Below are positions 15,368-55,638 of a stretch of 55,785 nucleotides of DNA, piece by piece. Position 1 is the stretch's first letter. Each line of letters begins with the position of its first letter. The DNA lies in NCBI GenBank assembly GCA_030647555.1, contig JAUSJG010000030.1, positions 1-55,785 on the forward strand, written 5' to 3'. The translations under genes were made by a program, and so were the position numbers. The DNA comes from a bacterium (GTDB lineage: Bacteria; Patescibacteriota; Andersenbacteria; UBA10190; CAIZMI01). The notes under the pieces were generated by a model. That model did not search any database and was not told the origin of the DNA. It saw only the letters and a program-made list of their open reading frames with translations.

Positions 15368-16561
15368 TTATTGCACAAAGGAAGCGAGGTTGTCGCGAAT
15401 GGTTTTTAGTTTTGTGATATTTGTGTTTAATCCGGCCTGCAGTTCACGTGCCGCCAAGTACGCTTTTACCGGATCTGTTTTTCCATAAGTCTGAATTACT
15501 CCCAGGCGGTCGTTTAGAAACCTTGTTATTTGGACTAATAAAGTTTGGTGCGGTACGGCAGTTGCGGGAGTGGGAATGGCTAATAATTTTCCTTCGTAGG
15601 TTGTTAGGTTGCCTCGGATAGAAGCCAGTTGTTGTGTATTGCCATAGAACGCATTCATTAACGCGGTTGTTAGGGTGTTTGAGTCGAGAAGTTCGGTTGG
15701 TCGCATTGCATCTATTTTCGTTAAGTAATCATTTATATCGGCGGGGGTGTTGGTTTGAATAATATTTAATTCCGATACTTTTGCTTCCGGTAGGGTGGTG
15801 TTTAATTGCGCATTGGCCAGTGTTTGTTGGACTTGTTCCGGGGTTACTTTAACTTGCCCGATTTGGTTTGTGGGCGTGTTGCCAAGCATCAGGCCGGCCA
15901 AACCCTCGGTGTAGTTGGAGGAATTTGTGTTGGGGCGCATGGCGGCATCGGACAGTTGGGCTTTTTTTTCGGGTAACGCGTCGCTGCCTTTTCCGTCTCC
16001 CGTTTTGGCGGGATCATAGCCATTTGTAACTTCTACGCCATCTTTATAATTATCCCCGTCCGTATCCGGATTAAACGCGTCTGTCTCCCATTTACATTCT
16101 TGATCATCGGTTAAACCGTCATCATCACTATCCAGGCGGGCATTGCCAGGCGTTAGAGGATTATAGCCGTTCTTCACTTCGTCGCCGTCTTTATAACTGT
16201 CTCCGTCCGTATCAGGATTGTTGTTATCAGTTTTGTAAATTGTTTCCACGGTATCCGGTAAACCATCATTGTCGGTGTCGGTTTGGCCAACCCATTGTGT
16301 GGGGCAAGCACTTTTTGAATTGACTGTCAGGGTGCTTCCGTTTGAAATTGCGTTTGGGTCGGGGGTGCCGTTAAAAAGCGGATCGGAGCCGTTATTGTTT
16401 CCGTCACCAAAAAGCGGTGCTTCGGATGGTGTTGGTGAACTCGAGTCGGTTGGTGGTTGGTTTGTAGTTGTGTCCTTATTTCTTACTAATTGGAAAATAC
16501 CGACACTGGCAACGATGAGCAGTGCTACCCCGAGAACAATATAGAGAATTCTGTTTTGCAT
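15368..16561 (-). CDS. membrane-anchored thrombospondin type-3-repeat protein
   Basis: N-terminal TM; DTDNDGLPD, DPDTDGDSYKDGDE, DSDDDGLTDDQE, NPDTDGDNYKDG repeats; C-terminal helical domain. Confidence 0.75.
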   Translation of the reverse strand: MQNRILYIVLGVALLIVASVGIFQLVRNKDTTTNQPPTDSSSPTPSEAPLFGDGNNNGSDPLFNGTPDPNAISNGSTLTVNSKSACPTQWVGQTDTDNDGLPDTVETIYKTDNNNPDTDGDSYKDGDEVKNGYNPLTPGNARLDSDDDGLTDDQECKWETDAFNPDTDGDNYKDGVEVTNGYDPAKTGDGKGSDALPEKKAQLSDAAMRPNTNSSNYTEGLAGLMLGNTPTNQIGQVKVTPEQVQQTLANAQLNTTLPEAKVSELNIIQTNTPADINDYLTKIDAMRPTELLDSNTLTTALMNAFYGNTQQLASIRGNLTTYEGKLLAIPTPATAVPHQTLLVQITRFLNDRLGVIQTYGKTDPVKAYLAARELQAGLNTNITKLKTIRDNLASFVQ

Positions 16562-16653
16562 TTATTATTTTGGTTTACAAAAAGTATAGCACAAAAAATA
16601 ATTTAGTTGTTGCAACGGCACAGATTTGGAGTGTTGATTGATGATTTCAACAA

Positions 16654-17733
16654 CTATTTCGCTAACGCGTCTAATTTTTGTCTTTCAATTTTAAGCGCGT
16701 TTAAGTTATCGGAAAGAATTTTTTGTAAGCCGGTCGCGGCTTGTAATTGTTTTTGCGGGTCTTTTCCTGCCACAGAGGCGATAATTCCGAGTTGTTGGTT
16801 TACGGAACGCGCTAAAGAAACCAATAAAATTTGATGATTAATCGCGTTCTCGGGAGTGGAAATTTTGAGAATATCTTTTTCGTATGTGTTTAATTGTGCC
16901 AAGACTGGTTGAAGTTTTGAGCCATCTCCGTTAAAAGCGGCTACTAATGCGTCGGTAAAAGGCGTACCACCGATTAAAACAGCCGGACTGCTCTGATCAA
17001 CTGTAGCTAAATATGTTTTTACGTTAGCCGGTGTGCTGTTTTTGCTAATATTTAGTTCGGTACGGGCAACTTTTACGAAATTAACCGGAGGAAAAGTTGG
17101 CGCGACGGTGGCTCTTGGCGTGGCGGTTGGAAGTGTGGATGTGGTTGGGGTGGGTGTGCCAAAAACTATACCTGTTGGTTCCGGCGATGGTGAGAAACCC
17201 GGTATTGGGGTGGGTGATGTACCTCCAATGCGGGCGTTCCCTGGAATTAGCGGATCATAACCGTTTATTACTTCCGCGCCGTCATTAAAGCTATCTCCGT
17301 CCGAGTCTGCCTTAAACGCGTCTGTCTCCCATTTACATTCTTGATCATCGGTTAAACCGTCATTATCACTATCCAGTCTCGCGCTACCTGGCTTTAGTGG
17401 GTCATAACCATTCTTCACTTCTTCGCCATCTTTATAACTATCTCCGTCTGTATCAGGGTTATTGGTATCGGTTTTGTAGATTGCTTCCACGGTATCAGGT
17501 AGACCATCATTGTCTGTGTCGGTTTGACCAATCCATTGCGTGGGACAAATAGCGGCAACAAGCGGTCCGTCCGGTGTTGGAGTGGCGGTGAATATCGGGC
17601 TTTCGGTTGGGGTCGCCGTTGGTTCCGGTGAAGGACCAACGCCTGTTTTTTTGCCAAATAAAAAGTATCCGACAATGCCAAATACCAGTAGGGCAAATAC
17701 TATGGCGATAATGATGAGGTTGCGTTTCGACAT
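16654..17733 (-). CDS. membrane-anchored thrombospondin type-3-repeat protein (tandem paralog)
   Basis: same repeat series as 15368-16561; 64/65 nt identity between 17312-17376 and 16071-16135. Confidence 0.75.
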   Translation of the reverse strand: MSKRNLIIIAIVFALLVFGIVGYFLFGKKTGVGPSPEPTATPTESPIFTATPTPDGPLVAAICPTQWIGQTDTDNDGLPDTVEAIYKTDTNNPDTDGDSYKDGEEVKNGYDPLKPGSARLDSDNDGLTDDQECKWETDAFKADSDGDSFNDGAEVINGYDPLIPGNARIGGTSPTPIPGFSPSPEPTGIVFGTPTPTTSTLPTATPRATVAPTFPPVNFVKVARTELNISKNSTPANVKTYLATVDQSSPAVLIGGTPFTDALVAAFNGDGSKLQPVLAQLNTYEKDILKISTPENAINHQILLVSLARSVNQQLGIIASVAGKDPQKQLQAATGLQKILSDNLNALKIERQKLDALAK

Positions 17734-23281: not shown

Positions 23282-24736
23282 ATGCGCGGGGGCAAACTAC
23301 TTAGAACTAGGTTTTATAGTAGTTTGGGTGCCTTTAGGAATCCAAGAAGAGAAAGGTCCGCTATTACTTCCTTTTCCCTCTGGGGTCGTCTGAAAAATCG
23401 CAAAAATTCGGATTCAGCGCTCCAAAGTGCCCAAGAAGGTGGCATCGTAGCGACAACTCATAATAAGCGTGCTTTTGGTGATAAGTTCAAGGTGCGTTTT
23501 CGTCGAGAATCTCTCGATATCGGACTCTGGCTCCGAAAATTGCCTGTGATCCGGGTGTCTCCACGGCTTTTACGTCTTTTGCCGAGAGGAAGATTCTCGA
23601 TTTTCAAGGAATATGTGGTGCATTTGGTAGTGCTTCTGATTGTTATTGGTGTGGTGTTTACAAATTTTGCCACCGGCGCGGCCGATCGTGGCAGTATGCT
23701 TTATCGTTTGTTTAGCGAAGCGGAAATTGAAGAAGGGCCGTTAAATACAAAGGCACTCCGTGAGGCGGCTTTGTCTTCTGTTACGGGGCGCAATTACGCC
23801 TTGGCGCAAGTTCCCTCTTCCGGCGGTATTACAGAAAATGACTTGGAGTTTCAACTTTCCAATACTTTGGATGGCAACGCGCTTCTTTCAACCGAGGAAC
23901 CAATTACATCCAACACGCAGACCGATCAGACGCAGAAACAAAAAAGTACTTTTGCATATTCTGTGCGTGAAGGTGATACGCCTTCAACGATTGCGGCTAA
24001 ATACGGCGTTAGTACCAATACAATCCTTTGGGCGAACGGTATTCATGATGGTGACACGATAAAAACAGGTGATATTTTGGTGATATTGCCGGTTACGGGT
24101 GTTCTCCACGAAGTTAAAGATGGTGATAATCTTGGTTCAATCGCCAAGAAATACAATGTTAAGTTGGAAGACATTGCTTCCGAAAATCACTTGGCCGATG
24201 CGGGAAGCCTGAAGATTAGTCAAAAATTAATAATTCCAGACGGTTATGTTGCACCAGTAACACAGCGACGAGTGGTGGCACAAGCGCCTGCCGATACAGC
24301 GGATAATTCCGACAATAGTGACGGCAGTGATCATACAGATCATCCAAAACCGGACGAAACACCAGCCAAACCGACAATTGGCGGTGGCTTTATTTGGCCG
24401 ACGGCCACCAAAAAACTGTCTCAATATTATGGTTGGAATCATACGGGGATTGATATTCCCAATCGCGCCTTGCCCCCGGTTTATGCGGCAAAGGCCGGTA
24501 CAGTTTCCTTTAGCGGTTGGTTGGGTGGTTATGGACACCTGATTATTGTTGATCATGGTAATTCAACTAAAACTTATTACGCTCACTTATCAAAAGACTT
24601 TGTAAAGACGGGAGAAGTTGTAAAACAAGGCGAGGTGATTGGAAATGTCGGTTCTACCGGTCGTTCTACCGGTCCGCATTTGCACTTCGAAATTCGTAAG
24701 AACGGAAAACCTACGAATCCGCTTAGTTACTTTTGA
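23282..24736 (+). CDS. LysM-domain M23 family metallopeptidase
   Basis: one TM; two LysM repeats (YSVREGDTPSTIAAKYGV, HEVKDGDNLGSIAKKYNV); M23 motifs HTGIDI and GSTGRSTGPHLHFEIR; exact start uncertain. Confidence 0.85.
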   Translation: MRGGKLLRTRFYSSLGAFRNPRRERSAITSFSLWGRLKNRKNSDSALQSAQEGGIVATTHNKRAFGDKFKVRFRRESLDIGLWLRKLPVIRVSPRLLRLLPRGRFSIFKEYVVHLVVLLIVIGVVFTNFATGAADRGSMLYRLFSEAEIEEGPLNTKALREAALSSVTGRNYALAQVPSSGGITENDLEFQLSNTLDGNALLSTEEPITSNTQTDQTQKQKSTFAYSVREGDTPSTIAAKYGVSTNTILWANGIHDGDTIKTGDILVILPVTGVLHEVKDGDNLGSIAKKYNVKLEDIASENHLADAGSLKISQKLIIPDGYVAPVTQRRVVAQAPADTADNSDNSDGSDHTDHPKPDETPAKPTIGGGFIWPTATKKLSQYYGWNHTGIDIPNRALPPVYAAKAGTVSFSGWLGGYGHLIIVDHGNSTKTYYAHLSKDFVKTGEVVKQGEVIGNVGSTGRSTGPHLHFEIRKNGKPTNPLSYF

Positions 24737-24776
24737 GCGAGACTCGCCCCGATGGGCGGTCCGCTTAGTTACTTTT
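24719..24776 (+). repeat. 16-bp direct duplication of the gene 3' end flanking a 26-nt GC-hairpin insert
   Basis: CCGCTTAGTTACTTTT at 24719-24734 and 24761-24776 around GAGCGAGACTCGCCCCGATGGGCGGT. Confidence 0.7.
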
Positions 24777-32049: not shown

Positions 32050-32057
32050 GTAAAGTT

Positions 32058-32188
32058 ATTAATTATCAATTATCAATTCCCAATTTTCAATTAATTATCA
32101 ATGGTTTAATTATCAATTACGGCGTCGTATTTTGATAATTTAAAAATTGATCATTAATTGATAATTGGTCATTGAAAATTGATAATTT
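32058..32188. repeat. AT-rich long palindromic intergenic element, copy 3
   Basis: ttatcaattatcaattcccaattttcaattaattatcaatgg...ACGGCGTCGT...gatcattaattgataattggtcattgaaaattgataattt. Confidence 0.75.
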
Positions 32189-32212
32189 AGGGCTAATTAT
32201 TTTCTGAATAAG

Positions 32213-33052: not shown

Positions 33053-33116
33053 GAGGACACTATAAGACAGAAGCTGGAGTTTTCAAAACATACATAATCT
33101 GTAAAAGATTATGAAT

Positions 33117-33277
33117 AATTTTCAATTATCAATTCCCAATTTTTCCGCCATCGGGCGGACCCGCCGTCGTGGCGGGCAATAAATTATCAATGGCCTAATT
33201 ATCAATTACGACGTCGTCTTTTGATAATTTAAAATTTGATCATTAATTGATAATTGGTCATTGAAAATTGATAATTT
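33117..33277. repeat. AT-rich long palindromic intergenic element, copy 4, carrying a nested 33-nt GC insert
   Basis: collinear with copies 3 and 5 except for 33144-33176. Confidence 0.75.
33144..33176 (+). mobile_element. 33-nt GC-rich double-hairpin insertion element
   Basis: TCCGCCATCGGGCGGACCCGCCGTCGTGGCGGG sits between cccaatttt and caataaatt, which are contiguous in copies 3 and 5; second copy at 53220-53252. Confidence 0.7.
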
Positions 33278-33284
33278 GTAAGTA

Positions 33285-35117: not shown

Positions 35118-36173
35118 ATGCCCAAATTAGACACAAAACAGCAAAAAATCGTCGGTTTGTTTCTCGAAAAAGGCGAGATGCAATCTTCAGATGTTCATAA
35201 TGCACTTAGTGGTCAAGGGGAAGATATTTCGCTTGTCACTGTTAAAAGGGCTTTGTCCGAACTGGAAAGCGGTGGAATTTTAACTACTGCCGGATTGGGA
35301 CGATCGACAAGTTACAAGATTTCCTCTGTCGGAAGAGTATTCGCGGATATTGACGCGAAACAATACTGTACGATTGAACCGGACAAAAGATACGGCTTGA
35401 AACAATTCAATTTTGATTTATTACCGGCCGTGCCGACCAATATTATTTTTGAAGATGAAGTAAATAAACTCGACGAGGCGACGGTAAAGTACAAAGAAAG
35501 AATAAAAGACAGTTCCGCCGTAATTCAAAAGAAAGAACTGGAAAGATTGGTAATTGAACTGTCATGGAAATCATCAAAGCTTGAGGGAAATACCTATACT
35601 CTTTTGGACACAGAAAGACTTATTTTGGAAAACAAGAAAGCCGAGGGACACAGTAAGGATGAAGCGCAAATGATTCTTAATCATAAGGATGCTTTTAATT
35701 ATATTCATCAGAACTCGGCGCAATTTAAAACCGTGTCCCGAAAAAATATTGAAGAATTACACACAATTCTTGTAAAAGATTTAGGTGTCGGTGTGGGTTT
35801 GCGAAAAAAAGTTGTTGGCGTGACCGGTTCAATTTATCATCCATTGGATAATATCCACCAAATTTCCGAAGCGATTGAGTCGCTTGCCAATACCGTTTCG
35901 CGACTGGCAACGCCGTATGAAAAAGCACTCGTTGTGTTGCTTGGTATTAGTTATATTCAACCGTTCGAAGACGGAAATAAGAGAACCGCGCGATTGATGA
36001 CTAATGCGATATTGCTTGCTCATAAGTGCGCCCCGCTTTCCTATCGCAGTATTGACGAAAATGATTACCGTGAAGCGATGTTGGTTTTTTATGAAATAAA
36101 TTCCTTGATGCCGATTAAAAAAATATTTATTGAACAATACTTGTTTGCCGCGGAAAATTACGCGGTGAGATAA
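35118..36173 (+). CDS. wHTH + Fic-domain protein with a degenerate active-site motif
   Basis: N-terminal wHTH; inhibitory-helix-like SSKLEGN; Fic motif position reads IQPFEDGNKRTARL instead of HPFx(D/E)GNGRxxR. Confidence 0.75.
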   Translation: MPKLDTKQQKIVGLFLEKGEMQSSDVHNALSGQGEDISLVTVKRALSELESGGILTTAGLGRSTSYKISSVGRVFADIDAKQYCTIEPDKRYGLKQFNFDLLPAVPTNIIFEDEVNKLDEATVKYKERIKDSSAVIQKKELERLVIELSWKSSKLEGNTYTLLDTERLILENKKAEGHSKDEAQMILNHKDAFNYIHQNSAQFKTVSRKNIEELHTILVKDLGVGVGLRKKVVGVTGSIYHPLDNIHQISEAIESLANTVSRLATPYEKALVVLLGISYIQPFEDGNKRTARLMTNAILLAHKCAPLSYRSIDENDYREAMLVFYEINSLMPIKKIFIEQYLFAAENYAVR

Positions 36174-36184
36174 CAAGGCGAATT

Positions 36185-36237
36185 AAGGATTATCCTTTCG
36201 TTTACCCTGAGTGAAATCGAAGGGTAGGATAATCCTT
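36185..36237 (+). terminator. long stem-loop downstream of the Fic gene
   Basis: AAGGATTATCCT...AGGATAATCCTT; no clear T-run. Confidence 0.35.
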
Positions 36238-36242
36238 AATTG

Positions 36243-36282
36243 GAGATTGCCACGTCCCGCCCGTGGCGGGACTCGCAAAGAC
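36243..36282 (-). repeat. GTCTTTGCGAG-hairpin-..GCAATCTC element (variant)
   Basis: reverse complement GTCTTTGCGAGTCCCGCCACGGGCGGGACGTGGCAATCTC. Confidence 0.55.
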
Positions 36283-38618: not shown

Positions 38619-38744
38619 ATTTTCAATTATCAATTCCCAATTTTCAATTAATTATCAATGACTCAATTATCAATTACAACGTCGTCACTTGATAATTTAA
38701 GAATTGATCATTAATTGATAATTGATCATTGAAAATTGATAATT
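38619..38744. repeat. AT-rich long palindromic intergenic element, copy 5
   Basis: ttttcaattatcaattcccaattttcaattaattatcaatgac...ACAACGTCGTC...gatcattaattgataattgatcattgaaaattgataatt. Confidence 0.75.
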
Positions 38745-53090: not shown

Positions 53091-53104
53091 TGTTAAATTG
53101 TCCG

Positions 53105-53176
53105 TCGGGGCGACAGGATTTGAACCTGCGGCCTCATCGTCCCGAACGATGCGCGCTACCACTGCGCTACGCCCCG
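53105..53176 (-). tRNA. tRNA-Pro(CGG)
   Basis: CGGGGCG-TA-GCGCAGTGGTAGCGC-G-CATCG-TTCGGGA-CGATG-AGGCC-GCAGGTTCAAATCCTGT-CGCCCCG-A. Confidence 0.9.
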
Positions 53177-53213
53177 ACGAACAATTCAACACCTCAATTT
53201 TTACTAATTTTTT

Positions 53214-53306
53214 GATTTGCCCGCCACATCGGCGGGTCCGCCTGCTGGCGGAAACCTGCGGCCTCATCGTCCCGAACGATGCGCGCTACCACTGCGCTAC
53301 GCCCCG
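53214..53306 (-). pseudogene. tRNA-Pro(CGG) copy truncated after the T loop and carrying the 33-nt GC element
   Basis: 53253-53306 is 54/54 identical to 53123-53176; insert after GGTT; CAAATC follows, then homology ends (no 3' T stem or acceptor). Confidence 0.75.
53220..53252 (-). mobile_element. 33-nt GC-rich double-hairpin insertion element (second copy)
   Basis: gene-sense TCCGCCAGCAGGCGGACCCGCCGATGTGGCGGG; stems identical to 33144-33176, loops differ. Confidence 0.7.
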
Positions 53307-53318
53307 AAATTTTTTATG

Positions 53319-53390
53319 TGGACCTGGCGGGACTCGAACCCGCGGTCTTTAGTATGCCATACTAACGCTTTTCCTCTAAGCTACAGGCCC
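53319..53390 (-). tRNA. tRNA-Ala(GGC)
   Basis: GGGCCTG acceptor with G3:U70, anticodon arm TTAGT-ATGGCAT-ACTAA, T arm GCGGG-TTCGAGT-CCCGC. Confidence 0.85.
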
Positions 53391-53469
53391 CCAACTTCGC
53401 TCTGTCTTGCTAGCCAGAGCTTCGCTGGGCAGGCAATGGAGATATTTACCACTGCTTGTCCCGCGAAGC

Positions 53470-54174
53470 TCAATCAAGAGATTGAGCGGAGTGGGAAGCT
53501 ACAGGCCCTAATTTTTCTAATAGTACTTTGGGAAGTGTTTCTAACTCTAGTTGTTTATCGGTTCCGGCGCAACCGATGATACATACGCCGTGATAATCCT
53601 TTTTTAATGTCGGTTTACCAATTGTGCGAGGATCAGGTTTAGACTGGCAAAAGTTTTTAATTGGAATACCCAGTGTCTTAGACCAATATTTATGCAATTT
53701 ATGAAGATTCTGATCAGCCCTATAACTCATTGATGCGTGAAGAACATCACGACTGATACCGTAGCATTTTTCAAGTAGCAGTACATACAGTCCCATTAAT
53801 TCTGGAGAGGAACTTCCCAACTGAAGACCTCGGTGTCCTGCCCATTTATAACCCTCTCCAAGATATAGAAATGAAAGTGCGATTTTATATATTTGAGGAT
53901 CCGGGTCATGTAAAAAATCCTCACATGTTTGTTGAATTGCAGCCATTCTGTCTTCTTGTTTTTTCCTACTATAAGCCAACGAATTTACCCTGCCACGCGC
54001 CAGACTTTTTAACATATTTTCCTTGTAAGCTTTCATGTAAGCTGGAGGAAGTTTTACGTCTTTTAACCAATAAGAAAGTGTACCTTTTGGAATTTTTCGC
54101 CCAAGAGCTTCTTGAATATCACCAAAAGTTTTTCCTTGTGCTCTTAGTTTCTGCGCCATTTCTTTTTCTGTCAT
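53470..54174 (-). CDS. HTH + single-motif LAGLIDADG-like endonuclease-family protein (paralog of 27326-28024)
   Basis: AQGKTFGDIQEALGRKIPKGTLSYWL; ALSFLYLGEGYKW; LQLGSSSPELMGLYVLLLEK. Confidence 0.55.
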   Translation of the reverse strand: MTEKEMAQKLRAQGKTFGDIQEALGRKIPKGTLSYWLKDVKLPPAYMKAYKENMLKSLARGRVNSLAYSRKKQEDRMAAIQQTCEDFLHDPDPQIYKIALSFLYLGEGYKWAGHRGLQLGSSSPELMGLYVLLLEKCYGISRDVLHASMSYRADQNLHKLHKYWSKTLGIPIKNFCQSKPDPRTIGKPTLKKDYHGVCIIGCAGTDKQLELETLPKVLLEKLGPVASHSAQSLD

Positions 54175-54278
54175 GTTGTAATTATACTCCGCGCCTATTC
54201 CATGTGCAATATCGTTTATGAGAAAAATCCATATTGCAGAAATTCAAATAATAAGTAAAAATAGGCGTACAGACGTAG

Positions 54279-54520
54279 GGGCCGTTAGCTCAGCCAGTAG
54301 GATTGTCGGCAATGAGTTGCCGAATCGGGGCAATCCTTCGGTGGGATGAGCCGGCTCCGCCGGAACATTATTTCACCGTAGAGCGCTACATTCGCATTGT
54401 AGAGGTCGGCGGTTCGCCGGAGCACCATGTGGGGAGCGGCGGGTTCCCCGAGAACATTCTGTGAATGTTCGAGAGGGTGCCAGCTCGCGTCCAGTACCCT
54501 ACGTGGTACTGGACGAATCC
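54279..54520 (+). pseudogene. tRNA-Ala(CGC) copy with structured inserts in the D loop and T loop, 3' end missing
   Basis: GGGCCGTTAGCTCAGC[about 83 nt]GTAGAGCGCTACATTCGCATTGTAGAGGTCGGCGGTTCG[about 105 nt]AATCC, then no acceptor 3' strand. Confidence 0.65.
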
Positions 54521-54565
54521 AAATTGCTATTTTCAAAAGCATGTTTGTATCATGATCAAATATTA

Positions 54566-54665
54566 GGGCTCGTAGCTCAGCTGGCAGAGCGCGGCATTCG
54601 CATTGCCGAGGTCAAGGGTTCGCTCGCTATCGCAGCGAGCGCCCGCTGAAATAGCGGGCGAATCC
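54566..54665 (+). pseudogene. second tRNA-Ala(CGC)-like copy with a 38-nt double hairpin in the T loop, 3' end missing
   Basis: GGGCTCGTAGCTCAGCTGGCAGAGCGCGGCATTCGCATTGCCGAGGTCAAGGGTTCG[CTCGCTATCGCAGCGAGCGCCCGCTGAAATAGCGGGCG]AATCC. Confidence 0.65.
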
Positions 54666-54697
54666 TAGCATTTCATTATATAATTGATTAATTACCA

Positions 54698-54773
54698 GGG
54701 CCGTTAGCTCAGCTGGCAGAGCGCTACATTCGCATTGTAGAGGTCGGCGGTTCGAATCCGCCACGGTCCACCA
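54698..54773 (+). tRNA. tRNA-Ala(CGC)
   Basis: GGGCCGT acceptor with G3:U70, CTACA-TTCGCAT-TGTAG, GGCGG-TTCGAAT-CCGCC, ACGGTCC-A-CCA. Confidence 0.9.
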
Positions 54774-54778
54774 AAATC

Positions 54779-55228
54779 ATGCGTGAAATACTAGACAGGC
54801 CCGGTGACGGTATTCTTTGCGCGGTAGCCATCATGATTAAAGGTGACAAAATTCTTGTTGGTCATCGGCATTACACAAAAGACAAATGGAAAGTTATTTC
54901 TGTTTGGACTATTCCTGGTGGTAGATCTGATAAGGGTGAAATTATTGAACAAACATTGCGACGCGAGGTTGCGGAAGAAGTCGGTATTTCTGAATTTGAA
55001 ATTGTTGATTTTATTGGAGAAGTACCTGGAGCTAAAGAAGGCGACGTGGTTTTAATTTTCCATTGTGAAACTGGTCAGGAAGCGAAACTCATGGAACCGG
55101 AAAAATTTTCGGAGTGGAGATGGGTTTCGATTGATGATTATATTTCGGAAGAAAAGTACAGTGGCTTTAATCCGGTTGCCAAGCAAATGATAGTGAATTA
55201 TTTGCTCGGTTTACGAAGGGGAAAATAA
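54779..55228 (+). CDS. Nudix hydrolase
   Basis: Nudix box GGRSDKGEIIEQTLRREVAEEVGI; ATG 5 nt after the tRNA CCA end. Confidence 0.85.
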   Translation: MREILDRPGDGILCAVAIMIKGDKILVGHRHYTKDKWKVISVWTIPGGRSDKGEIIEQTLRREVAEEVGISEFEIVDFIGEVPGAKEGDVVLIFHCETGQEAKLMEPEKFSEWRWVSIDDYISEEKYSGFNPVAKQMIVNYLLGLRRGK

Positions 55229-55234
55229 CTTGAT

Positions 55235-55638
55235 ATGTCCTGGTATCTCTATATCGCGCAAGCGCAAAAGACGGGGAATTATTATGTTGGAATTTCCACG
55301 GATGTGAAAAAGCGGATTATTGCGCACAATAAGGGTAAGGCCTCGTCCGTAAATAAATTCCCCAAGATTATACTCACTGCATCTTTAACTGCAAGCACTT
55401 CTCAATCGTAAAACCTTTCACCGTACTGCTAGTACGCCTCAAGGTTTTACTCAATCAAAGTACTTACATTTAAAGCGCATTGAGTATAATCTTGGGGAAT
55501 TTATTTACGGACGAGGCCTAAGGGAGCGTAATGGCGCGGACGCAGGAGCCGTTCGTTTTGGTTTACAAATCAAAAAACTGCCGACGTAGTTGGTGGTTTC
55601 GATCGAATACCATGATGCCGATATCCTATGGCGACTGA
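55235..55638 (+). pseudogene. GIY-YIG (UPF0213-like) nuclease gene disrupted by a MITE and a frame change
   Basis: MSWYLYIAQAQKTGNYYVGISTDVKKRIIAHNKGK up to 55338; after the insert GA-stop, while ..EPFVLVY.. continues in another frame. Confidence 0.5.
55339..55518. mobile_element. 180-nt MITE with perfect 38-bp terminal inverted repeats and TAA flanks
   Basis: GGCCTCGTCCGTAAATAAATTCCCCAAGATTATACTCA at 55339-55376, exact reverse complement at 55481-55518; TAA on both sides (55336-55338, 55519-55521). Confidence 0.8.

Follow-up and report, generated by a model that had tools for sequence, protein, structure and literature searches.

A 30–34-nt double-hairpin element inserted at TT^VA sites in bacteria of several phyla, and its candidate GIY-YIG nuclease partner

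How does one GC-rich double hairpin come to interrupt two unrelated sites of the same bacterial contig, and what could have moved it there? We addressed this question in contig JAUSJG010000030.1 (assembly GCA_030647555.1; Andersenbacteria, Patescibacteriota), of which the whole stretch analyzed, 55,785 nt of the forward strand, is called the window here. The window contains two copies of a 33-nt unit, hereafter E, one in an AT-rich repeat and one in a partial copy of a tRNA-Pro gene. Our data suggest, with a probability of roughly 0.55, that E is a miniature non-autonomous mobile element, a bacterial counterpart of the double-hairpin elements (DHEs) of mitochondria, and that it is probably mobilized in trans by a GIY-YIG nuclease of the UPF0213 type.

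The window features that bear on the two insertions are as follows (^ marks the insertion point; MITE, miniature inverted-repeat transposable element).

33144–33176, + strand: E copy 1, 33-nt double hairpin TCCGCCATCGGGCGGACCCGCCGTCGTGGCGGG (TCCGCC-ATCG-GGCGGA CCCGCC-GTCGT-GGCGGG), site aatttt^caat
33112–33281, + strand: AT-rich palindromic (MITE-like) element hosting E copy 1, between the AP-endonuclease gene (identity inferred from synteny) and the YbbR gene
32056–32190, + strand: empty copy of the AT-rich element, reference empty site ...CCCAATTTT^CAATTAAT...
53253–53306, − strand: L, 54-nt copy of the 5′ part of tRNA-Pro(cgg), same as the intact gene and ending in TT; a sub-threshold tRNA match covers 53243–53304
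53220–53252, − strand: E copy 2, TCCGCCAGCAGGCGGACCCGCCGATGTGGCGGG (TCCGCC-AGCA-GGCGGA CCCGCC-GATGT-GGCGGG), site gcaggtt^caaatc in the T loop
53214–53219, − strand: r, the 6 nt caaatc, where the T loop resumes after E copy 2 and the tRNA-Pro copy ends
53177–53213, − strand: S, 37-nt spacer similar to the native sequence upstream of tRNA-Pro in the relative L130
53104–53176, − strand: intact tRNA-Pro(cgg), empty reference site GCAGGTT^CAAATCC

Both copies were as an earlier note on this DNA had described them: 33 nt long, with the same stems and different loops, a TT^CAA junction, and target bases neither duplicated nor lost. The pattern TCCGCC-N4-GGCGGA-CCCGCC-N5-GGCGGG had 2 matches in the window (33144–33176, +; 53220–53252, −) and 0 in shuffled window sequence, even at 3 mismatches. 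Folded as single-stranded DNA, each copy formed two adjoining 6-bp hairpins (copy 1, −15.2 kcal/mol, z = −3.8; copy 2, −15.3 kcal/mol, z = −5.2). The AT-rich palindromic repeat is ~135 nt long, and alignment of 32056–32190 with 33112–33281 gave one 33-nt gap. We observed uninterrupted TCCCAATTTT^CAATTAAT in three other copies of the repeat (1543–1567, −; 32071–32095 and 38628–38652, +). Because empty repeat copies outnumber the filled one 3:1, the 33 nt in the AT-rich element are derived and not ancestral. At the second site, the 54-nt tRNA-Pro copy plus caaatc matched the intact gene (53176..53104) across GCAGGTT^CAAATC, and the intact gene lies 43 nt downstream. The three empty AT-rich copies, the intact tRNA-Pro and relatives without the insertion bear out the proposal of the earlier note that E was inserted.

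We performed a family scan on the contigs of one genome per species (596 Gb), with the stems fixed and the loops free; all counts are of the matches listed, and listed loci carry L numbers. At least 124 exact-stem copies of E were present in at least 120 contigs, compared to ~0.1 expected by our own estimate. The earlier note had made its reading depend on further copies with like flanks, and these copies share a TT^ junction rule. The consensus was TCCGCC-NNA-GGCGGA-CCCGCC-TNN-GGCGGG. Nearly all listed copies were 30 nt long, and the family ranged from 30 to 34 nt. The 4+5-loop variant was rare, with one match in the metagenome collection (L122), in a tRNA-Ser fragment beside an intact tRNA-Ser. 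By label, the 120 listed contigs comprised 53 Patescibacteria, 23 Omnitrophota, 11 Planctomycetota, 8 Kiritimatiellia/Lentisphaerota, 8 Gammaproteobacteria, 6 Chloroflexota and a few others. Copies of E came from metagenome-assembled genomes (MAGs) produced in many studies with a range of assemblers, from a single-cell genome (L003, L024, L088) and, beyond the listed contigs, from a 923-kb single-contig genome (L137, CP066690.1). A scan of viral sequences gave one E match, in a viral contig. No Rfam family matched E.

Flank analysis of 121 listed copies showed T at −2 (102/121) and −1 (92/121), C, A or G at +1 (116/121) and A at +2 (84/121), with no conserved 5′ tetranucleotide beyond TT. In tRNA and 5S genes the flanking bases are part of the target itself, so E follows a rule of insertion at TT^VA, with V standing for C, A or G. 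E consists of two perfect hairpins without a spacer, and the junctions lie at the hairpin feet. Beyond the hairpins we found nothing that would serve as a linker, a guide or an offset cleavage site. No target duplication was observed at clean sites; repeated flanks, where present, were one-sided (10–66 nt). The loci also contained copies with 1–3 stem mismatches, solo half-elements and stems with paired changes (CCAGCC/GGCTGG; TCCGGC/GCCGGA with CCCGGC/GCCGGG), which indicates that E copies decay and that the hairpins are kept rather than the exact bases. Loops varied slightly among copies of one genome. We rejected the idea that complementary loops turn the whole of E into a perfect palindrome of 30 nt, as the count did not exceed chance (14 vs 14 expected); only A9/T22 and one further position co-varied.

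Two side observations concern larger or different repeats. E centers longer palindromes of tandem heptamers (gttacag... / cggtttt...) in the Omnitrophota loci L016, L021, L024, L026, L003 and L119, which suggests that it is the core of larger composite repeats there. In L037, the tRNA-Thr fragment that carries E has an unrelated 40-nt palindrome inserted at gggatt^gaacc, ~40 nt to the left of E. TT^ sites seem to be used by other hairpin families as well.

We next describe where E lands. Open frames of at least 150 codons held 73/124 listed copies (59%), and 52 of these 73 were in frame 0 of either strand, where E encodes the 10-residue SAxGGPAxGG or PAxGGSAxGG (Ser/Ala/Gly/Pro). Among RecG orthologues of seven genomes, E was a clean 10-codon insert at four positions. 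Three genomes or lineages carried E at the same RecG codon, LHGxM^K, where orthologues without E were contiguous. The clean in-frame RecG inserts and the reading-frame bias argue that coding copies of E are translated and not spliced out. recG was over-represented among the targets (6/7 recG-bearing loci of the 120: L008, L017, L027, L050, L063, L092), and aminoacyl-tRNA-synthetase-like genes were also among them by inspection. The AT-rich element of the window shows that E also lands in intergenic repeats.

RNA genes were the other frequent setting. An intact tRNA lay within 100 nt of E in 14/124 listed copies, compared to 38/2400 random positions in the same loci, and truncated tRNA or 5S copies hosted about a quarter of the listed E copies (~30 genuine cases; 35 rows listed, a handful spurious). 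We observed that E in RNA genes was always in a truncated pseudo-copy and never in a functional gene. The pseudo-copy runs from the gene boundary to TT as a long arm and continues beyond E as a short arm with a median of 7 nt (mostly 5–11). A spacer or small ORF (open reading frame) follows the short arm, and then an intact copy of the same gene. The long arm can lie on either side of E (16 vs 19 of the 35 rows). Because the long arm and the short remnant are contiguous in the intact copy, insertion was exact. The 5S rRNA gene in L025 had the same fragment–E–remnant–intact gene layout, as did the window tRNA-Pro locus (L54-E-r6-S37-gene). A tRNA intron or spliced element was ruled out by the truncated pseudo-copies beside intact genes and by the frame-biased coding copies. 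As an origin of the partial gene copies, a simple tandem duplication or replication slip-back was also rejected as unlikely, since S generally does not resemble what precedes the fragment.

An all-against-all comparison of ORFs from the 120 listed loci showed one family adjoining E. The other recurrent families were E-bearing targets (RecG, aminoacyl-tRNA-synthetase-like) or, where checked, housekeeping genes. The E-adjoining family is a stand-alone GIY-YIG domain of 85–95 residues (PF01541, E-value = 6e-15 to 4e-11), an ~80-residue catalytic domain with no DNA-binding domain; among solved structures it comes closest to 1YWL and 1ZG2, both UPF0213 proteins. A GIY-YIG ORF was present in 20/120 listed loci, and in 13 of these it lay within 30 nt of E (13/124 copies). 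Those ORFs always lay between the E-bearing fragment and an intact tRNA, co-oriented with the tRNA, at five tRNA species. We observed the arrangement in two polarities: fragment–E–r–ORF–tRNA (tRNA-Ser, Pro, Glu) and tRNA–ORF–l–E–fragment (tRNA-Val, Pro). The orientation of E tracked the strand of TT^VA and not the GIY-YIG ORF.

We also searched for homologues of the nuclease, which gave 3518 at an E-value ≤ 1e-8, and took seven contexts without reference to E; the profile was built from tRNA-Ser-linked ORFs and the seven were the best matches, so that the sample is independent of E and not of tRNA-Ser. All seven contexts (7/7) contained a tRNA-Ser 5′ fragment with E-type hairpins, the GIY-YIG ORF and an intact tRNA-Ser. 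The hairpin stood in the anticodon loop in six of them, at ...ggtcttg^ or ...ggtctcg^, and in the seventh (L129) the hairpins were decayed. The contexts were labeled Planctomycetes, Parcubacteria, Minisyncoccota, Elusimicrobia, Deltaproteobacteria and Sungiibacteriota (CP066690, the 923-kb single contig), and one was unlabeled. These data suggest that the GIY-YIG nuclease is probably the mobilizer of E. As a side observation, L137 (CP066690.1, 294005–295716) carries two tandem GIY-YIG ORFs, each after a tRNA-Ser fragment plus E, and a further E in a fragment after the intact tRNA-Ser, which suggests that this tRNA-Ser locus was invaded serially.

The RNase Y of the window had its best named matches in Candidatus Andersenbacteria (~58% identity), and other relatives reached 78–82%, which places the window in a bacterium of the Patescibacteria (CPR). 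Exact-protein searches with window genes matched just a 951-nt contig. We compared the window with two syntenic relatives, L132 and the 1.0-Mb contig L130. In each of them the YbbR gene overlaps the AP-endonuclease gene, leaving no room for the AT-rich element or E. In L130, tRNA-Ala(cgc) is followed after 36 nt by tRNA-Pro(cgg), and the hairpin element is absent. In L132, the T loop of a partial tRNA-Val(tac) gene holds a near-identical E of 34 nt (TCCGCC-AGCAC-GGCGGA CCCGCC-GATGT-GGCGGG), which exceeds window copy 2 by one base. The order there is a 54-nt tRNA 5′ copy, E, r10, S18 and the intact tRNA-Val; the window tRNA-Val has no E insert. Because its presence varies between close relatives and between tRNA genes, E appears to have been active recently. 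L132 also contains, at 16560–16700, an extra 3′ tRNA-Val fragment and a duplicated copy of the segment after tRNA-Leu, in which an AT-rich hairpin is replaced by the half-E-like CCCCGCC-TCT-GGCGGGG.

Two further window loci are of note: a tRNA-Ala locus with a different double hairpin, which the earlier note had missed, and a nuclease remnant.

54566–54620, + strand: diverged 5′ copy of tRNA-Ala(cgc) ending in gggtt, probably foreign; paired changes set its anticodon stem apart from that of the intact gene
54621–54658, + strand: 38-nt double hairpin CGCTCGC-TATCGCA-GCGAGCG CCCGCT-GAAAT-AGCGGG, different from E, in the T loop at gggtt^cgaatcc
54659–54669, + strand: tRNA-like 11 nt after the hairpin
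54670–54697, + strand: 28-nt spacer
54698–54773, + strand: intact tRNA-Ala(cgc), near-identical to the gene in L130
55235–55638, + strand: decayed stand-alone GIY-YIG (UPF0213-type) ORF split by a MITE, the sole window member of the nuclease family that adjoins E elsewhere

The tRNA-Ala(cgc) locus has the same layout as the tRNA-Pro locus. Since its fragment shows paired anticodon-stem changes relative to the intact gene, while the intact gene nearly matches that of L130, the fragment is probably the foreign partner as judged from these alignments. A single crossover in the 5′ part of the tRNA was rejected for this locus: the fragment diverges from the intact gene from nt 5 on.

We propose the following route for the nuclease-driven insertion of E. 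The folded hairpins would stack into a nicked 12-bp dumbbell (GGCGGG^TCCGCC / GGCGGACCCGCC), closed by the two loops, with the target flanks brought together; the conserved A9/T22 would lengthen the central palindrome to AGGCGGACCCGCCT. A small nuclease could recognize the dumbbell or the palindrome, and, acting in trans, it would make nicks at TT^VA and either directly at the feet of E or close to them. Host ligation or repair would finish the insertion. The constant ~7-nt remnant may mean that a second cut falls at a set, short spacing from E and that the end is then joined to another gene copy. The autonomous form would then be gene fragment–E–~7 nt–nuclease gene–intact tRNA, a layout that would result if a chromosomal tRNA gene underwent one crossover with a circle, or with an incoming fragment, carrying E-r-ORF-gene part. 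Such a composite would restore the interrupted essential gene, so that the tRNA is not lost, and would be transcribed from the tRNA promoter. The window copies would be solo derivatives of a lineage-specific subfamily with 4–5-nt loops, recently active in an Andersenbacteria-like clade of Patescibacteria.

Tentatively, and at less than even odds, we suggest a wider claim: that E and the UPF0213 nuclease form a previously unrecognized nuclease-based mobile system, which would cut at the dumbbell or TT^VA, have hairpin DNA ligated in, enter essential tRNA genes in its autonomous form with a replacement tRNA copy on board, and cross phyla among ultra-small groundwater bacteria (Patescibacteria, Omnitrophota and others). 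Horizontal exchange between Patescibacteria and Omnitrophota, GIY-YIG genes included, has been described in groundwater MAGs (PMC12455944), and the cross-phylum identity of E fits this exchange.

Several points weigh against mobilization by the nuclease. None of the 73 copies within protein genes adjoins a nuclease gene. The sole GIY-YIG gene of the window is a decayed one, 460 nt away from the closest element, and the syntenic loci of the relatives L130 and L132 contain no GIY-YIG gene. GIY-YIG enzymes hydrolyze DNA and perform no strand transfer, and host ligation or repair would therefore be needed for the proposed insertion. Simple tandem duplication or slippage does not account for the partial gene duplication. 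A preference for hairpin loops in single-stranded DNA, tried as a target rule, showed weak enrichment (53% vs 42%, P = 0.04) and was dropped. GIY-YIG genes and E could also target tRNA genes independently of each other, though the fine-scale layout argues otherwise.

The earlier note had attributed E to HUH/Y1 transposases of the IS200/IS605 or repetitive extragenic palindrome (REP)/REP-associated tyrosine transposase (RAYT) type, by which it would move as a REP- or IS200/IS605-like hairpin in single-stranded DNA under a Y1/RAYT enzyme encoded elsewhere in the genome. We consider this unlikely. The likeness that prompted it stands, in that an element made of hairpins inserts 3′ of TT, a short motif, without duplication; membership in either group is not supported. 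The statement of the note that the window has no HUH/Y1 gene agrees with our searches: tblastn with IS608 TnpA and Escherichia coli RAYT, as a rough probe, found nothing in the window, and Pfam on 32 window ORFs gave no transposase, integrase or nuclease. No transposase family recurred within ~4 kb of the 124 listed E copies, where GIY-YIG recurs instead. The 120 listed loci held one RAYT-like Y1_Tnp ORF (PF01797, 27.8 bits), 1.2 kb from E in L021, an Omnitrophota MAG. That gene (L021 3480–3625 and 3641–4330, −, hairpins included) is flanked by its own REP-like hairpins, GTAG-GGGCGG...CCGCCC, unlike E, and looks like a separate REP/RAYT system in an E-bearing genome; one Y1 gene per 0.85 Mb of loci is about chance by our own estimate. 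The lack of guide, linker and offset cleavage sequences and of a conserved 5′ tetranucleotide in E also counts against a Y1 enzyme, which would leave the ~7-nt short arm and the adjoining GIY-YIG gene unexplained. Moreover, REP families are usually genome-specific and intergenic, whereas E has the same stems in at least six phyla and is common inside genes.

It is improbable, in our judgment, that some other activity inserts E (such as a Cas1-like integrase, an enzyme encoded by a phage or plasmid, or a structure-specific nuclease of the host together with a ligase) and that the GIY-YIG gene is just another selfish occupant of tRNA loci. Most E copies lack a nearby nuclease gene, the cross-phylum spread fits a shared mobile vector, as does the copy in a viral contig, and 30–34 nt resembles the size of integrase substrates; against this, no other gene family recurs near E, and the fine-scale layout of E and GIY-YIG recurs at five tRNA species in both polarities. 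Still more doubtful is that E is immobile by itself, a scar at the boundary of a GIY-YIG/tRNA cassette, with solo copies arising by loss through recombination between r repeats and spread occurring solely via homologous recombination or transformation with conserved flanking genes. The cassette boundary carries E in 7/7 sampled contexts, the layout would equal a single crossover of a tRNA gene with a circle of E-r-ORF-L′, and the hairpin-bearing window tRNA-Ala fragment looks foreign beside an intact gene that matches the relative's. The 73 copies in unrelated protein genes and the one in the AT-rich repeat have no cassette or duplicated gene part, and the same TT^VA junction at unrelated sites points to direct insertion of a 30-nt unit. 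That E is not mobile at all is hardly credible. Very high GC and perfect hairpins could be sequencing or assembly artefacts, and strongly conserved stems could mark a host-selected motif (terminator or protein-binding site), yet the copies come from many studies and assemblers, including the single-cell and single-contig genomes, and they show frame bias, target preference and decay. The sites in conserved proteins and pseudo-tRNA fragments are unlike terminators, and Rfam had no match; the distribution of E effectively refutes an artefact or structural motif.

Of known systems, fungal mitochondrial DHEs come closest to E in form and behavior, and the palindromic elements of Rickettsia are also close. 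Fungal mitochondrial DHEs are GC-rich, have two hairpins, occur in intergenic regions and rRNA genes, and are identical across species except for the loops; they are presumed mobile, through an unknown mechanism (PMC10085805). DHEs and GC clusters (Allomyces, Schizosaccharomyces, yeasts) resemble E as short, dispersed two-hairpin units in AT-richer DNA with identity except in the loops, a likeness drawn from their published description. They are organellar, whereas E occurs in free-living or episymbiotic bacteria of many phyla. E goes beyond them in its defined TT^VA junction, its frequent in-frame coding inserts and its recurrent UPF0213 GIY-YIG partner, which is not reported for DHEs. In Allomyces, a mobile endonuclease ORF reportedly supplied a new gene end, with the former end persisting as a pseudogene.

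Rickettsia palindromic elements (RPEs) insert in frame into genes and, like E, are translated and enter both ORFs and RNA genes. They are ~100–150 bp long and confined to Rickettsia, in contrast to 30–34 nt across phyla for E, and we know of no partner nuclease or gene-fragment duplication for them. REPs and bacterial interspersed mosaic elements with their RAYTs, IS200/IS605 and its miniature derivatives (palindrome-associated transposable elements, PATEs) are also hairpin-based and insert 3′ of a short motif without duplication; unlike E, REP/RAYT and IS200/IS605 systems use a Y1 HUH enzyme, GTAG or guide sequences and offset cleavage, and are mostly intergenic. Classical DDE-type MITEs have terminal inverted repeats and a fixed-length target-site duplication, which E lacks at clean sites. 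Free-standing GIY-YIG homing genes include phage T4 SegB in the tRNA cluster, with presence/absence variation and flank co-transfer (PMC2330249). Such genes (T4 Seg, and fungal mitochondrial ones with partial gene duplications) resemble the E cassette in an ORF lodged by tRNAs or between gene segments. The E-linked ORF differs in being a catalytic domain only, and the junction always provides it with a conserved double hairpin of 30 nt as a companion. Literature searches for the sequence itself, and for GIY-YIG combined with hairpins, tRNA, UPF0213 or the groups Patescibacteria and Omnitrophota, turned up no account of E, within incomplete coverage of journals. The partner nuclease and the gene-replacement layout appear new, whereas miniature hairpin mobile DNA is already known.

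With the same stems in at least six phyla, in essential proteins and in tRNA and 5S copies, E would rank among the smallest mobile DNAs known and would let gene flow be traced directly in ultra-small bacteria that are uncultured. Genome annotation is affected through pseudo-tRNA fragments, odd protein inserts and rearrangement breakpoints. Stand-alone UPF0213 GIY-YIG proteins, very common and uncharacterized, would gain a testable function, the first for the family if true. E could also serve as a bacterial model for the long-unexplained mitochondrial DHEs and GC clusters.

The earlier note had named two looser relatives of E in the window, and neither was clearly one. The first is the following feature.

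24735–24759, + strand: 25-nt GC insert at ctttt^ag (TT^AG), where the M23/LysM peptidase gene ends (3′ end)

Insertion at TT^AG stood for this site. Its likeness to E did not: a hairpin forms in the second half alone (−6.1 kcal/mol, z = −1.9), and a 17-nt repeat of the left flank (24718–24734) stands after the insert at 24760–24776, whereas two related genomes have a single copy. The second, 36254–36272, is a lone hairpin for which no tie to the E family was established. It lies near a perfect 16-nt inverted repeat (36181–36196 / 36226–36241) and a Fic-domain ORF (35118–36173, +). Both relatives lack this ORF, which the window has between RNase Y and YbbR.

Other observations concern the hairpin-bearing tRNA loci and their surroundings. 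A segment with tRNA-Ala(ggc) and tRNA-Ala(cgc) is inverted in the window (53100–54800) relative to L130 (1–500), which parts tRNA-Pro from tRNA-Ala(cgc), and the breakpoints of this inversion are the positions of the hairpin-bearing tRNA fragments. Between the two loci lies an ORF of 234 residues containing LYLGEG (53470–54174, −), with no match in Pfam, NCBIfam or PDB. L130 has just 192 nt at this position, and the ORF may be another selfish or homing-type insert. The unrelated MITE that splits the decayed GIY-YIG ORF (55339–55518, ~180 nt) has 38-nt terminal inverted repeats (GGCCTCGTCCGTAAATAAATTCCCCAAGATTATACTCA) with TAAGG on both sides.

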